Positions 4,394-41,054 of a stretch of DNA of 48,095 bases are shown piece by piece; position 1 is the stretch's first letter; every line of letters begins with the position of its first letter. The position numbers and the translations under genes were made by a program. Location: sequence record SRR20825019_1265; one strand, written 5' to 3'. Under the pieces are notes generated by a model that was not told the origin of the DNA, did no database searches, and worked only from the letters and a program-made list of their open reading frames with translations.

Positions 4394-4539
4394 TTCCTGT
4401 CTCCGGCTCCGATCACCCACGGGACGTCATTCCTGCGAGAGCAGTGACCTTCGTACCGGACCCGGCATGACAACCAACGGCTCGCCAAGGCGGGCTTCAC
4501 CGCGTGGGTCGAGTTTTCCAGGGCAGTCGAGGAGTCCGA

Positions 4540-5544
4540 ATGCACAGTTATCTCTGGTTTGTGGGGAAGCGCGCGCTGCAATTGCTGGCGGTGATCTTCT
4601 TCGGTGTTTCGGCAACCTTCCTGGTGACGCATCTGTCACCGATCAACCCGGTGGAATCGGCTCTGGGCCGGATGACCGCAAGGTCGGTTTCCAACCCGGA
4701 AGCCATCGTGGCGATGCGTGCCGCCCTGACCGAGCTCTATGGCGTCGATGAGCCCATCTGGAGCCAATATATCAATTTCTGGACCCGATTGGTGCAAGGT
4801 GACTTCGGCCCATCGCTGCTGGCCTTCCCGACGCCGGCGATGACGCTGGTGATGCGCGCCCTGCCCTGGACCGTCACCCTGCTGACCCTGGCCACGCTGA
4901 TCACCTTTGCCGTTGGCAACATCATGGGTGGCCTTGCCGGCTACAACCAGAACAACCGCTTCCTCAAGGCCTTTGGCCTGGTGGCTATCGGCATCCAGCC
5001 GATCCCCTATTACGTCGTCGCCTTCATCATGCTGATCCTGTTCGGGTTTGTCTGGCCGATCCTGCCGATTTCCGGCGGCTTTGCGATGAACGTAACGCCG
5101 GGCTGGAACTGGCCCTACATCTCCTCGGTCATCCAGCATGCCACCCTGCCCGCGCTCTCCCTGGTGCTGGTCGGATTTGGCGGCTGGTTCCTGGGCATGC
5201 GTGCACTGGTGTCCAATGTGGTCACAGAGGACTATGTGACCTATGCCGAACTGGCCGGTGTGAAGCGATCAACAATCGTGGGCGCCTATGTGATGCGCAA
5301 TGCGCTGCTGCCACAGCTGACGGCGCTGGCCATGGCGCTCGGAACCGTGTTCTCAGGCACGGTGATCACCGAACAGGTCTTCAACTATCCCGGGCTGGGC
5401 TCCCTGCTGATCGACGCGGTCAATGCCGGGGACTATTCGCTGGTGCTGGCCGTTGCGACCGTGTCGGTGACGGCGGTGGCGGTGTCGATTTTCATCGTGG
5501 ACCTGCTCTATCCCATTCTCGATCCACGCGTACGGGCGGAGTAA
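4540..5544 (+). CDS. ABC transporter permease (OppB/DppB-like)
   Basis: ATG 4540 after GAGGAG. GDFGPS, EAA-like loop EDYVTYAELAGVK, VITEQVFNYPGLG, LDPRVR ending. Confidence 0.92.
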   Translation: MHSYLWFVGKRALQLLAVIFFGVSATFLVTHLSPINPVESALGRMTARSVSNPEAIVAMRAALTELYGVDEPIWSQYINFWTRLVQGDFGPSLLAFPTPAMTLVMRALPWTVTLLTLATLITFAVGNIMGGLAGYNQNNRFLKAFGLVAIGIQPIPYYVVAFIMLILFGFVWPILPISGGFAMNVTPGWNWPYISSVIQHATLPALSLVLVGFGGWFLGMRALVSNVVTEDYVTYAELAGVKRSTIVGAYVMRNALLPQLTALAMALGTVFSGTVITEQVFNYPGLGSLLIDAVNAGDYSLVLAVATVSVTAVAVSIFIVDLLYPILDPRVRAE

Positions 5545-35896: not shown

Positions 35897-37540
35897 TCAG
35901 CCGGCGAGCGTTTTCGCCTGGCTGGTGTTTGCCCCCAGTGTCGAATCCTGTGCCGCCTCAGTCTTCAACAGCTTGTATGTGATTGATTCATACAGAGCTT
36001 CAAACGAGGCATCAATGATATTGGGCGAAACGCCGATAGTTACCCAGCGCTCACCGCTGCCGTCGCGGCTTTCGACCAGTACACGGGTGACCGCGCCCGT
36101 GCCGCCGTCCAGGATACGGACCTTGAAGTCCACCAGCTCAAGATCCTCGATTCGGGACGAATATTTGCCCAGATCCTTGCGCAGGGCCTGGTCCAGGGCG
36201 TTGACCGGGCCATTGCCCTCGGCCACCGACATCAGCAATTCGCCATCGACCCGGATTTTGACCACGGCTTCGGTGACCGTGACCTCCTCGCCAAGGGCGT
36301 TGTGGCGCCGCTCGACCATGGCGCGATAGTGCTCGACGTCGAAAAAGTCGGGGAGCGTGCCGAGGACGCGGCGGGCAAGCACAGCGAAGGACGCATCGGC
36401 GCCGTCATAGGAATAGCCCCGGGATTCGCGTTCCTTGACGGTAGCGAGCAGCTTTTCCAGCTTCGGGTCGTCCTTTTCTAGCGCGATATCGTGCCGGGCC
36501 AATGCGGTGAGCAGGTTGGACTTGCCAGCCTGTTGGGACACCATGATGGCACGTTCATTGCCGACGCTTTCGGGCGGCACATGCTCATAGGTGGAAAAGT
36601 CCTTGAGCAGGGCGGAAGCGTGAATACCCGCCTTGGTCGCGAAGGCAGATGCTCCCACATAGGGCGCCTGCCGCGCCGGCGCGCGGTTGAGTCGGTCATC
36701 GAAAGCGCGGGAAATGTGCGTGAGGCGCGAGAGGTGTTCGGGGGTGATGCCGGTTTCGAAGCGTTCGGCATAATAGCGCTTGAGGGCAAGGGTCGGGATC
36801 AGCGTCACCAGATTGGCGTTGCCGCAACGTTCGCCCAGTCCATTCAGTGTGCCCTGGATCTGGCAGACCCCGGCCTCGACCGCCGCCAAGGCGTTGGCAA
36901 CGGCCTGGCCGGTGTCGTCATGAGGATGGATGCCCAGACGATCACCGGGCGCGATGGCCAGCACGTCCGCAATGATTTCGCGCACCTCCGAGGGCATGGT
37001 GCCGCCATTGGTGTCGCAGAGCACGACCCAGCGCGCGCCGGCCTCAAGGGCTGTCTTCACGCAGGTCAGGGCATAGGTGCGATTGGCCTTGTAGCCATCG
37101 AAGAAGTGCTCGAGATCGACCAGCACTTCCTTATTGCCGTCCGAGGCGGTACGAACAGAATCGGCAATCCCTTCGAGATGTTCTTCGGTGCTGCAGCCAA
37201 GCGCCAGCTCGACCTGGTAGTCCCAGGCCTTGGCAACATAGCAAACGGCCCCGGCCGCTGAATTGACCAGCCCCATGACACCAGGATCATTGGCAGCCGA
37301 GCGCCCTGCCCGCTTGGTCATGCCGAAGGCCGTGAAGATGGCTTTTTTGGTACGCTTTTCCTCGAAGAATGCCGTATCGACCGGATTAGCGCCCGGATAG
37401 CCGCCTTCAATATAGTCCACGCCAATCTGTTCGAGCATGCCGGCGATGGCGATCTTGTCCTCTAGAGAGAACTCGATGCCGGCGGTCTGCGCGCCGTCGC
37501 GCAGGGTGGTGTCGAAGAGATAGAGGCGTGTGCGGGACAT
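35897..37540 (-). CDS. cimA: citramalate synthase (LeuA/CimA family)
   Basis: DTTLRDGAQ, IEGGYPGANP, EHFFDG, LCDTNGG, GERCGNANL, PYVG.SAF..KAGIH, GNGPVNALD, TRVL.ES; bacterial CimA subfamily pattern. Confidence 0.85.
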   Translation of the reverse strand: MSRTRLYLFDTTLRDGAQTAGIEFSLEDKIAIAGMLEQIGVDYIEGGYPGANPVDTAFFEEKRTKKAIFTAFGMTKRAGRSAANDPGVMGLVNSAAGAVCYVAKAWDYQVELALGCSTEEHLEGIADSVRTASDGNKEVLVDLEHFFDGYKANRTYALTCVKTALEAGARWVVLCDTNGGTMPSEVREIIADVLAIAPGDRLGIHPHDDTGQAVANALAAVEAGVCQIQGTLNGLGERCGNANLVTLIPTLALKRYYAERFETGITPEHLSRLTHISRAFDDRLNRAPARQAPYVGASAFATKAGIHASALLKDFSTYEHVPPESVGNERAIMVSQQAGKSNLLTALARHDIALEKDDPKLEKLLATVKERESRGYSYDGADASFAVLARRVLGTLPDFFDVEHYRAMVERRHNALGEEVTVTEAVVKIRVDGELLMSVAEGNGPVNALDQALRKDLGKYSSRIEDLELVDFKVRILDGGTGAVTRVLVESRDGSGERWVTIGVSPNIIDASFEALYESITYKLLKTEAAQDSTLGANTSQAKTLAG

Positions 37541-38961: not shown

Positions 38962-40365
38962 TCACCGCTTGACCTCCCACTTGGTCTGGCGTTGGCCGGC
39001 TTCGTCCTTGTAGTCCATCAGGGCGATGCCTTGCTCGGCAAGTTCGTTGCGGATGGCGTCAGCCTTGGCGAAGTCTTTGGCGTTGAGGGCGGCGAGGCGG
39101 GCGGCGATTTGTTCGGCAACTTCCACACTGCCGCCAGTTGGAAACTGCGACTTGAGCCAGCCGAGGTTATGGCCTTGCACCCCCAAGAAACGCAATCCGG
39201 CGGCCACCGCAGCGATATCTCCCTCCTTGTGCAAGTTTTGGAGAACTTTGATAGCCGAGGGGGTGTTCAGGTCATCACACACTGCTGAATAGAAATCCGA
39301 GGATAGCTGTCCATCCGAAGCCTCATGACCCTGAACAGCCGAGGTAAGCTTCGATAGAATAATGTCCGCCTCTTCTAGGCGAGCAACGCTAAAATCGATC
39401 GGCTCGCGATAGTGCGTCATGAGCATCGCGAAGCGCAACACCGGACCAGGCCATTTCCACCCGCCAAAGCCGGTCGTCTCCAGCAGGTCGTGGATCGTGA
39501 AGAAATTGCCGAGCGACTTGCTCATCTTTTGGCCTTCGACCTGCAGGAAGCCGTTGTGCATCCAGACATTGGCCATGGCGTGCGAGCCGTGGGCGCAGCG
39601 CGACTGAGCGATCTCATTTTCGTGGTGCGGGAAAATGAGATCGAGTCCGCCGCCATGAATGTCGAATGTCTCGCCCAGATAGCGCTCGGACATGGCGGAG
39701 CATTCGATATGCCAGCCGGGCCGGCCGCGACCCCAGGGGCTGTCCCAGCCGGGTTCATCCTCGGACGACAGCTTCCAGAGTACAAAGTCGGCCGGATTGC
39801 GCTTGTGCGTGTCCACCGCGACGCGGGCGCCGGCCAGATTGTCCTCGAGGTTGCGCCCCGAGAGTTGTCCGTAGTCGGGCATGGAATCGACGGCAAACAA
39901 CACCTCGCCGCCCGCCTCATAGGCATTACCCTTGTCCAGCAGGCGCTGGATCATCGCTTGCATCTCGGCGATGTTTTCGGTGGCGCGGGGCTGGATGGTC
40001 GGTTCGAGGCAGCCGAGCGCAGCAACATCCTTCTGGTATTGCGCGGCGGTGGTTTCGGTGACCTTGCGGATGGCCTCGTTCAGCGGCAGTTCGGGATGAT
40101 CGCGCAGGGCGCGGGCGTTGATCTTGTCATCGACGTCGGTGATGTTTCGCACATAGGTGACGTGCTCGGCCCCATAGGTGTGGCGCAGCAGGCGAAACAG
40201 CAGGTCGAAGACAATGGCGGCCCGGCCATTGCCGATATGGGCGAAGTCATAGACCGTGGGACCGCAGGCATAGAGACGCACATTTTTCTCGTCCATCGGC
40301 ACGAAGGGGGACTTGGTCCGGGTGAGCGTGTTGTAGAGAGAAAGCTGCGGATTTGCCGTGGTCAT
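38962..40365 (-). CDS. cysS: cysteine--tRNA ligase
   Basis: [57 protein letters not shown] 40365 after AGGA. Confidence 0.97.
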
Positions 40366-40464
40366 CGCGGGGTCCTGTGGGCCATACGGAATTGCTCTGG
40401 CGGGAGAGCCTCTATCCGTTTTCAAACTATCAGGATGAAGAAGACCGCTCCGCCAACACTGGGG

Positions 40465-40509
40465 TTAGCAGGTAATAATGCAGCAGATAATGGTGCACGC
40501 GGTGTTCAT
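40465..40509 (-). CDS. Cys/Ile/Thr-rich leader peptide (uORF) of the cysS operon
   Basis: ATG AAC ACC GCG TGC ACC ATT ATC TGC TGC ATT ATT ACC TGC TAA = MNTACTIICCIITC, 99 nt upstream of cysS. Confidence 0.75.
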   Translation of the reverse strand: MNTACTIICCIITC

Positions 40510-40516
40510 GGCGCGG

Positions 40517-40545
40517 AGATTGGCCGGGCGGCCAGAAGAAATCAA
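40517..40545 (-). promoter_or_regulatory. sigma70-like promoter placing +1 at or near the uORF ATG
   Basis: TTGATT(40545-40540)-N17-CAATCT(40522-40517)-7 nt-ATG(40509). Confidence 0.6.
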
Positions 40546-40553
40546 GCCCAAAC

Positions 40554-40580
40554 AAAAAAAGGGCGGTCCGAAGACCGCCC
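40554..40580 (-). terminator. intrinsic terminator of the cytochrome c gene
   Basis: GGGCGGTC-TTCG-GACCGCCC-TTTTTTT on the minus strand. Confidence 0.9.
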
Positions 40581-40610
40581 GATCGCTTTGGAGGCGACAC
40601 TCATCCGTAC

Positions 40611-41054
40611 CTAAGAGGCGCGGAATTGCTCGTGACAGGCACCGCATTGTCCCATGACGGTCTGCAGGCCGGCCTTGTAGGCGTCGACATCACCGGCCTG
40701 TGCACCTGCGAGGGCGGCTTCGGCACCTCCCTTGGCGGTGTCCAGAATTGCGGTGAATTCTTCCCAGTTCTCCCAGATCGCCGGTAGCGCTCTGGACCCT
40801 TCGATTGCGGAACCTTCCGGGAAGAGGTCGGGTAATTGGGTAAAACTATCAACCAATGTCTGCGCGGCGGCGATTGCCTCGTCACCGGTCTTGTCCATGG
40901 CTCCACCCTGGAGAACAGCGCCATTTGACTTCATCAGGTCCTGGCGCATGGCCACGGCCTCTTCTGGGCTAAAGGCATCCTGGGCAATTACACCCAATGC
41001 GCCGACAGCGGCCAAGGCAACGAATGCCAGGGCCGCAGTAGTACGGATGAACAT
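40611..41054 (-). CDS. class II cytochrome c (c556/c')
   Basis: Signal peptide, RQDLMK, LFPEGS, ALPAIWENWEEF, C-terminal CGACH. Confidence 0.9.
   Translation of the reverse strand: MFIRTTAALAFVALAAVGALGVIAQDAFSPEEAVAMRQDLMKSNGAVLQGGAMDKTGDEAIAAAQTLVDSFTQLPDLFPEGSAIEGSRALPAIWENWEEFTAILDTAKGGAEAALAGAQAGDVDAYKAGLQTVMGQCGACHEQFRAS

Follow-up and report, generated by a model that had tools for sequence, protein, structure and literature searches.

The closest described counterpart of the element studied here, a short upstream open reading frame (uORF) in front of the cysteine--tRNA ligase gene cysS, is the uORFC-8-2 motif, of which 145 examples were reported, all of them from Rhodobacterales and all preceding cysS (Brewer et al. 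2021, RNA Biol 18:2417, PMC8632094). As described in the main text of that paper, the motif has a conserved AUG-initiated uORF with two tandem Cys codons, mostly UGC and usually at positions 14-15, and two prominent stems, the first of which holds the Cys codons; a U run lies at the 3' end, and terminator-based, ribosome-mediated attenuation was proposed (PMC8632094). We analysed a stretch of 48,095 nucleotides (nt) from sequence record SRR20825019_1265, referred to as the window, in which a uORF rich in Ile and Cys codons precedes cysS and a run of genes ending in the citramalate synthase gene cimA. With a probability of roughly 0.7, we read this uORF as part of a leaderless, ribosome-mediated leader-peptide attenuator that responds to Ile and Cys and controls the cysS-(VOC-GFA-GFA)-cimA unit.

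Like uORFC-8-2 in its published description, the window uORF lies upstream of an alphaproteobacterial cysS, begins with AUG, contains tandem Cys codons and is predicted to have hairpins around and after these codons. It differs from that description in the position of the tandem Cys codons (TGC TGC), which are codons 9-10, not 14-15 (the paper's numbering may use another start), and in having only an interrupted U/C tract after the hairpin P1 in place of a U-run intrinsic terminator. The motif was described from Rhodobacterales as a Cys sensor of cysS only, whereas here the Ile codons were the most constant, cimA is part of the unit, and a close relative of the window (genome G408) belongs to the Rhizobium order. 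There is no Rfam model of uORFC-8-2 for comparison. Isoleucine, citramalate, cimA, leaderless, Rhizobiales and Hyphomicrobiales are absent from the main text of PMC8632094; its supplements were outside this check. The Cys/cysS half of the system is, going by that text, already published for Rhodobacterales, experimentally untested there, and an earlier, sequence-only reading of the window, which did not recognise a characterised alphaproteobacterial element here, no longer holds for that half. Literature searches returned no paper on a cysS/cimA pairing and no link to Ile. The features that we did not find in print were the prominence of Ile, the cimA association, the second order, the leaderless start and an output by release of the ribosome-binding site.

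Two systems from other phyla are comparable in part. The polycysteine short ORFs of mycobacteria are leaderless, sensory, control expression at the operon level and were tested experimentally (Canestrari et al. 2020, bioRxiv 10.1101/834739). The window uORF resembles them as a leaderless sensory short ORF with operon-level control, which is predicted here; unlike it, the mycobacterial ORFs are Cys-only and stand before Cys-metabolic genes, and no homology is expected across the phyla. For Deinococcus deserti, transcription was mapped to begin at the AUG of a mini-ORF that contains Cys and precedes cysS, and this was read as an attenuator. Unlike the window leader, this one comes from an unrelated phylum and has two Cys residues, and the passages covered mention neither Ile codons nor cimA.

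Enteric bacteria have leaders that read several amino acids: the thr leader reads Thr and Ile, and the ilvGMEDA leader reads Ile, Leu and Val. The pheST leader controls an aminoacyl-tRNA synthetase, and the leu leader uses rare control codons. The window leader is like the thr, ilvGMEDA and pheST leaders in that more than one charged tRNA would be read, in its alternative 1:2 and 2:3 pairings and in the predicted control of a synthetase gene. Unlike it, the enteric leaders have a Shine-Dalgarno (SD) sequence and an intrinsic terminator, and their sensed amino acids belong to one pathway; the window leader would respond to two metabolically unrelated amino acids, and its unit joins a synthetase with a biosynthetic enzyme. 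Of the traits of trp/thr/ilv attenuators, the window has the short ORF rich in control codons (4 Ile and 4 Cys among 14 codons) and the exclusive 1:2 and 2:3 pairings, but the 3:4 intrinsic terminator before the first structural gene is absent.

Conservation and control codons of the leader

The window uORF (MNTACTIICCIITC) has Ile at codons 7, 8, 11 and 12 (three ATT and one ATC), Cys at codons 5, 9, 10 and 14 (all TGC) and three Thr; the numbers of Cys, Ile and Thr are those given by the sequence-only reading. Against the background of 486 ORFs that start with ATG and have 8-30 codons, counted on the two strands of the window, it was the sole outlier, with 8 Ile+Cys in the last 10 residues; the next best ORFs had 4.

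A first sample consisted of 80 cysS loci from public genomes and the window. By a simple composition rule, an Ile/Cys-rich ATG uORF was present 60-220 nt 5' of cysS in 34 of these 81 loci, and the carriers included Rhizobiaceae, Phyllobacteriaceae, a Brucella-related genome, Xanthobacteraceae-like genomes, Bosea, Rhodobacterales and several metagenome-assembled genomes. A rule-based uORF classifier was dropped for a covariance model because it missed obvious leaders. The model (R1, 116 positions, from an alignment of 95 leaders) matched 76 of 101 whole Rhizobium-order genomes. A match stood directly 5' of cysS in 73 of the 98 sampled Rhizobium-order genomes (73 matches); the remaining 8 matches were weak, were antisense copies of a palindromic region in the second hairpin (P2, below) or lay at a contig end. 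Two weak matches were located away from cysS, at G364:C16:37499-37592 (31.6 bits) and G359:C53:16014-16140 (26.4 bits); in G359, cysS and cimA are on separate contigs.

Thirty cysS loci were sampled from Rhodobacterales, and a uORF with at least 4 Ile+Cys in its last ten residues was found in 27 of them (at least 5 in 22). Several of the peptides nearly match that of the window (e.g. L313 and L323), and in most of the sampled leaders of this order the tandem Cys codons stood 3-5 codons before the stop, as in the window. R1 scored the window at 52.1 bits and the Rhodobacterales leaders at 23.8-32.7 bits. The Rhizobium-order relative G408 (locus L211) has a CysRS protein (the cysS product) 84% identical to that of the window and an identical uORF at both the peptide and the DNA level; the 160-nt stretch that runs from the -10 box as far as the cysS ATG differs by only 4 substitutions; the -35 and -10 hexamers are also identical, the spacer differs, and a 57-nt indel lies between the terminator and the promoter. 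The search for Cys/Ile-rich short ORFs upstream of cysS in relatives, which the sequence-only reading had proposed as a check, thus found them conserved and in frame.

Rfam contained no family that matched the leader, whether searched with the window at E up to 10 or with 7 relatives, one of them a Roseovarius locus. In that locus (L026), a PYLIS_3 match was obtained at 4448-4546 on the minus strand (45.4 bits, gathering score 38), with the cysS leader lying some 1.3 kb downstream of it; such an element is unexpected in an alphaproteobacterium, and the match is probably spurious.

The ATG of the window uORF lies 7 nt after the -10 box and has no SD in front of it. With a -35 box, a spacer of about 17 nt, a -10 box and a further spacing of about 7 nt, transcription is expected to start at the A of this ATG. 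The same spacing was seen in relatives: a -35-like TTG[AGC][CT] occurred 34-40 nt (mode 36-37) 5' of the in-frame uORF ATG in 63 of 67 model-defined leaders, compared with 96 of 2150 control ATGs drawn from the same loci. In 63/67 leaders the promoter-supported ATG shared its frame with the stop codon that forms part of P1, and in none was it out of frame. The uORF varied from 10 to 31 codons in length among the model-defined leaders; its N-terminus was free, and the frame and the C-terminal codons were kept. The comparison supports the leaderless placement suggested earlier, and the transcript is predicted to begin at the uORF ATG. A search for RNA sequencing runs found none of this organism, only matches at contig level and one metatranscriptome with a small share. 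The leader as a whole is real and conserved, with a covarying two-state RNA, and is almost certainly translated. In a ribosome-profiling paper on S. meliloti, cysS is unmentioned in the text, and there is no entry at the expected coordinates 5' of cysS in the covered part of one supplementary file; this is no evidence of absence.

To count control codons, we aligned 69 unique Rhizobium-order leaders on the stop codon and compared their last 8 codons with the cysS genes. Ile made up 41.5% of these codons versus 4.7% in cysS genes (8.8-fold enriched), Cys 15.6% versus 1.0% (16-fold enriched) and Thr 3.4%. All 69 leaders had 2-5 Ile among the last 8 codons; position -3 was Ile in 67 of them and position -4 in 54. 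Cys was absent from 7 leaders, and it occurred once in 41, twice in 18 and three times in 3; the Cys-free leaders (the 7 of 69 and L034) retained the Ile run. The stop codon was TAG in 51/69. The leaders favoured the rare codon ATT, with an ATT:ATC ratio of 166:63 versus 124:495 in cysS genes, and the two codons interchange at the same positions among leaders, which argues that the identity of the encoded amino acid is what is kept. The equally AU-rich codons for Lys, Asn, Phe and Tyr were not enriched. These counts point to Ile as a control codon conserved at least as much as Cys and argue that Thr is not one. The earlier proposal of dual sensing, by Cys on the one hand and Ile/Thr on the other, is supported by comparison as far as the Cys and Ile codons are conserved; its Thr part is not supported.

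A Methyloceanibacter leader (L034:5886-6010) scored 52.2 bits with R1 and encodes a peptide without Cys that is rich in Ile, Leu and Val. The leaders L225 and L226 resemble it and have a single Cys.

Competing helices and the predicted output

The single-sequence fold of the window leader was unexceptional (z = -0.75), and the structure therefore had to be shown by comparison. The minimum-free-energy fold contains a weak hairpin over the Cys codons together with P1; covariation was assessed for P1 and P2 and counted on 95 leaders. In P1, the last sense codon and the stop codon of the uORF (region 1) pair with an arm (region 2) that lies 5-9 nt downstream of the stop-codon arm. Most relatives have GCUAGC:GCUGGC at this place, and CUGCUAAC:GUUGGCGG in the window is a compensated variant. 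P1 was paired in 92.8% of cells, 5 of its 6 pairs changed on both sides, and none of 500 shuffles reached its score; slid controls were paired in 46.6% at most. At the base of P2, region 2 pairs with a distal segment (region 3) that is GCCAGC in relatives and CCGCCA in the window. Here 87.4% of cells were paired, both sides had changed in 6 of 7 pairs, and again 0/500 shuffles reached the score (slid controls, 44.8% at most). Since P1 and P2 share one arm, the 1:2 and 2:3 pairings are mutually exclusive, with region 1 at the end of the ORF.

When the uORF was masked, the nascent window RNA was predicted to fold into a P2 hairpin of about 20 base pairs (-19 to -22 kcal/mol). When it was unmasked, P1 was predicted together with a nested fold that pairs the anti-SD UCCUG with the cysS SD CAGGA. 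The full-length P2 state of the window lay 1.9 kcal/mol above the minimum free energy.

These folds suggest how the leader may work. A 70S ribosome would translate the 14 codons from a transcript that probably starts at the A of the uORF ATG. If Ile-tRNA or Cys-tRNA were scarce, the ribosome would stall on the Ile or Cys codons in the last third of the uORF and cover region 1, region 2 would pair with region 3 to form P2, and P2 would bury the pyrimidine-rich anti-SD and leave the cysS ribosome-binding site open. If the ribosome instead reached the stop codon and left, or covered region 2, P1 or alternative downstream folds would form and the anti-SD would pair with the cysS SD. An effect of Rho polarity on the downstream genes, including cimA, may follow, and a minority of relatives have a 3:4 hairpin resembling a terminator, which might add transcriptional control.

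The predicted accessibility of the SD/AUG region is consistent with this scheme. Enforcing P2 gave 0.448 and enforcing P1 gave 0.355, and the P2 value was the higher one in 45 of 58 leaders (Wilcoxon p = 2.6e-6); 10 of 68 leaders, where region 3 ran into the SD or not enough pairs were enforceable, were dropped from this test. In 29 relatives analysed by masking, the effect was small: a ribosome at the last Cys gave an accessibility of 0.40, and one at the stop codon gave 0.32 (p = 6e-5); the value at the last Cys was no different from that of the free RNA (p = 0.18). The output in the window is most likely translational, mainly by release of the ribosome-binding site.

Linkage to cimA and competing explanations

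In the first sample, cimA (TIGR00977) was found 3' of cysS on the same strand at 28 of 33 uORF-bearing loci; 4 of the other 5 end too early, and one is a Hyphomonas genome without cimA. The same arrangement was present in 82 of the 98 Rhizobium-order genomes (gaps of 15-3462 nt), and cimA lay 3' of cysS at 29 of the 30 Rhodobacterales loci (gaps of 45-251 nt), the remaining locus ending at a contig edge. The leader tracked this linkage: within the Rhizobium order it was present in 69 of 82 cimA-linked genomes versus 0 of 11 that were verifiably unlinked (Fisher p = 4e-8). In each of the 4 other genomes with the leader, cysS stands at the edge of a contig, and p was 6e-6 if these and 1 leaderless contig-edge genome were scored as unlinked.

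In the Hyphomonas order, cimA was within 1.5 kb of cysS at 0 of 30 loci. Five of these 30 cysS loci (L191, L199, which is the same place as L053, L206, L209 and L210) have a uORF whose end is a stretch of 3-7 Cys; it lacks an Ile run and an R1 match, and no cimA is nearby. This poly-Cys uORF looks like an independent, Cys-only leader of cysS.

Across the Alphaproteobacteria (class-level cimA loci L081-L180), cysS was upstream of cimA at 68 of 98 evaluable loci, mostly with gaps below 150 nt. Judged by this distribution, the cysS-cimA adjacency predates the leader and reaches beyond it. Outside the two orders, such a uORF was missing from most cysS-cimA pairs, and several seeming matches were, by eye, out-of-frame ORFs inside the upstream gene. 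A class-level tally of 175/301 includes one unpublished genome, G212, which was used nowhere else. In many alphaproteobacteria outside both orders, cysS follows an upstream same-strand ORF within about 25-100 nt, with no room for a leader (L089, L097, L105, L111, L138, L149, L158, L159 and others); going by its C-terminal residues, this ORF may be gltX-like.

Several observations weigh against an Ile- and Cys-responsive attenuator of the whole unit. Stepwise equilibrium masking of the window leader left SD accessibility at about 0.5, and in L211, which is of the window type, enforcing P2 raised accessibility by only 0.06 (from 0.48 to 0.54). Given the unchanged equilibrium accessibility and the small gain in L211, the switch has to be kinetic; we read it as kinetic and mainly translational, as in the leaderless Cys ORFs of mycobacteria. 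The difference between self and cross anti-SD:SD duplex energies was modest (-15.5 vs -14.3 kcal/mol, p = 0.012, 29 leaders). The association between the leader and cimA linkage is confounded by shared ancestry. R1 matched 4 of the 100 class-level loci fetched, all 4 being training sequences, and adjacency is in this respect much wider than the leader. Among 30 cimA genes unlinked to cysS, no Ile leader of their own was evident. Finally, there is no evident physiological reason for CysRS to rise on Ile starvation.

The leader could instead be a Cys-only attenuator of cysS, as proposed for uORFC-8-2. The Ile codons would then be a non-sensing, AU-rich and slowly read spacer, serving to position the ribosome or to keep the 5' end unstructured for leaderless initiation, and the cimA linkage would be an inherited gene order without regulatory meaning. 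Cys is cognate to the first gene and has the 16-fold enrichment, the published model invokes Cys alone, cysS-cimA adjacency without the leader occurs in many orders, and the ATT bias could come from selection at the nucleotide level. We nevertheless consider this explanation unlikely, because Ile is more constant than Cys among the 69 leaders (2-5 Ile in every one; no Cys in 7 and a single Cys in 41), because the interchange of ATT and ATC at the same positions indicates that codon identity is kept, and because the equally AU-rich Lys, Asn, Phe and Tyr codons are not enriched. In addition, poly-Cys leaders without Ile runs occur where cimA is unlinked, and none of the 11 genomes with cysS verifiably without cimA has the leader.

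Transcriptional control, the output proposed for uORFC-8-2, would require P1 with its pyrimidine-rich tract, or a 3:4 hairpin, to act as an intrinsic terminator that stalled ribosomes prevent. A U/C-rich tract does follow P1 in all leaders, a U run is described at the 3' end of uORFC-8-2, and in 9 of the 68 Rhizobium-order leaders a hairpin resembling a terminator, with a U tract, precedes cysS. In the window, however, the terminator scan found no intrinsic terminator from the uORF to cysS, and the tract starts 6 nt after P1 and is interrupted by C. The other 59 of 68 relatives have no terminator-like element, with cysS mostly starting 76-100 nt after the uORF stop (99 nt from stop to ATG in the window), and the tract is the 5' arm of the covarying P2. 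This output is, in our judgement, quite improbable for the window, and the attenuator reading as first put forward is supported in part by comparison, without the classical terminator. Even less probable, to the point of being nearly negligible, is a role for the peptide itself, either as a hydrophobic Cys/Ile small protein or through arrest of the nascent peptide in response to a free metabolite. The length of 10-31 codons and the N-terminus vary freely, the last 8 codons contain 0-3 Cys, the stop and the last codon are constrained by RNA pairing, and the bias to rare codons suits regulatory codons; these points outweigh for us the conserved C-terminal pattern and the CxxC or CxC spacing of many relatives. 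The trp leader peptide of S. meliloti has a function in trans, which also counts for a peptide product.

Within the attenuator reading that we prefer, it is a tentative and rather doubtful further step to regard the leader as first of all an Ile sensor that exists because of cimA and that would couple the charging of tRNA-Cys to the threonine-independent Ile route in two large alphaproteobacterial orders. If this were true, the leader would act as a logic gate that is read by ribosomes and has two inputs, from amino acids without a metabolic relation. A physiological link might lie behind it, such as cysteine interference with threonine deaminase, which would make the citramalate bypass needed; such interference is known from work in E. 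coli. In the Rhizobium-order sample, the control codons conserved best are Ile codons and not Cys codons, and the last gene of the unit encodes the enzyme that opens the citramalate route to isoleucine. The Cys motif, published but untested, would reach from one order into a second large one, to which rhizobia and further well-studied model bacteria belong, and its output would seem to be release of a ribosome-binding site on a leaderless mRNA instead of a terminator. One short ORF that may integrate two unrelated amino-acid signals is a directly testable case, and it raises the question why CysRS and CimA should be co-regulated. The practical value is modest, namely a better annotation of cysS/cimA regulation and a compact two-input sensor.

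Genes and signals around the leader

The coordinates of the features are listed in Table 1. The terminator, the promoter, the SD-less ATG, the leader ORF and the downstream genes were all on the minus strand where the sequence-only reading had placed them, and its gene run cysS-VOC-GFA-GFA-cimA was the same, with the family assignments confirming both ends.

Table 1. Features of the cysS leader and its surroundings in the window
Feature	Position	Strand	Remarks
Leader ORF MNTACTIICCIITC	40465..40509	-	14 codons + TAA (40467-40465); ATG 40509-40507
Hairpin P1 (regions 1:2)	40450..40471	-	5' arm CUGCUAAC (last sense codon + stop codon) pairs with GUUGGCGG; minimum-free-energy fold
Long hairpin P2 (regions 2:3)	40394..40459	-	base UGGCGG:CCGCCA reuses the P1 3' arm; anti-SD UCCUG 40435-40431 in upper part
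Promoter	40517..40545	-	-35 TTGATT 40545-40540, 17-nt spacer, -10 CAATCT 40522-40517
cysS ribosome-binding site	40363..40377	-	SD CAGGA 40377-40373, ATG 40365-40363
cysS, cysteine--tRNA ligase	38962..40365	-	TIGR00435, 456 bits (cut-off 340)
VOC/glyoxalase gene	38895-38512	-	between cysS and cimA
First GFA gene	38525-38052	-	between cysS and cimA
Second GFA gene	38052-37558	-	between cysS and cimA
cimA, citramalate synthase	35897..37540	-	TIGR00977, 586 bits (cut-off 450)
Intrinsic terminator of upstream cytochrome c' gene	40554..40580	-	8-bp stem 40580-40561, 7 GC pairs, then T run
Cytochrome c' gene, upstream neighbour	40611-41054	-	PF01322

The terminator of the cytochrome c' gene insulates the cysS leader, which forms a separate transcription unit. 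A weak Rfam match to suhB/mmgR at 40546-40615 (18 bits, gathering score 41, E = 2.5) overlaps this terminator and is most likely due to chance.

Downstream, the gap from cysS to the VOC gene is 66 nt, the VOC and first GFA genes overlap by 14 nt, the two GFA genes overlap by 1 nt, and 17 nt separate the second GFA gene from cimA. No terminator-like site was found in the intergenic gaps, the cysS-VOC gap included, and the weak matches of the scan lay within coding sequence. The genes from cysS to cimA are presumably co-transcribed. A VOC/glyoxalase gene and 2-3 paralogous GFA-family genes also lie between cysS and cimA at Rhizobiaceae and Phyllobacteriaceae loci (L001-L008, L021, L025 and L070).

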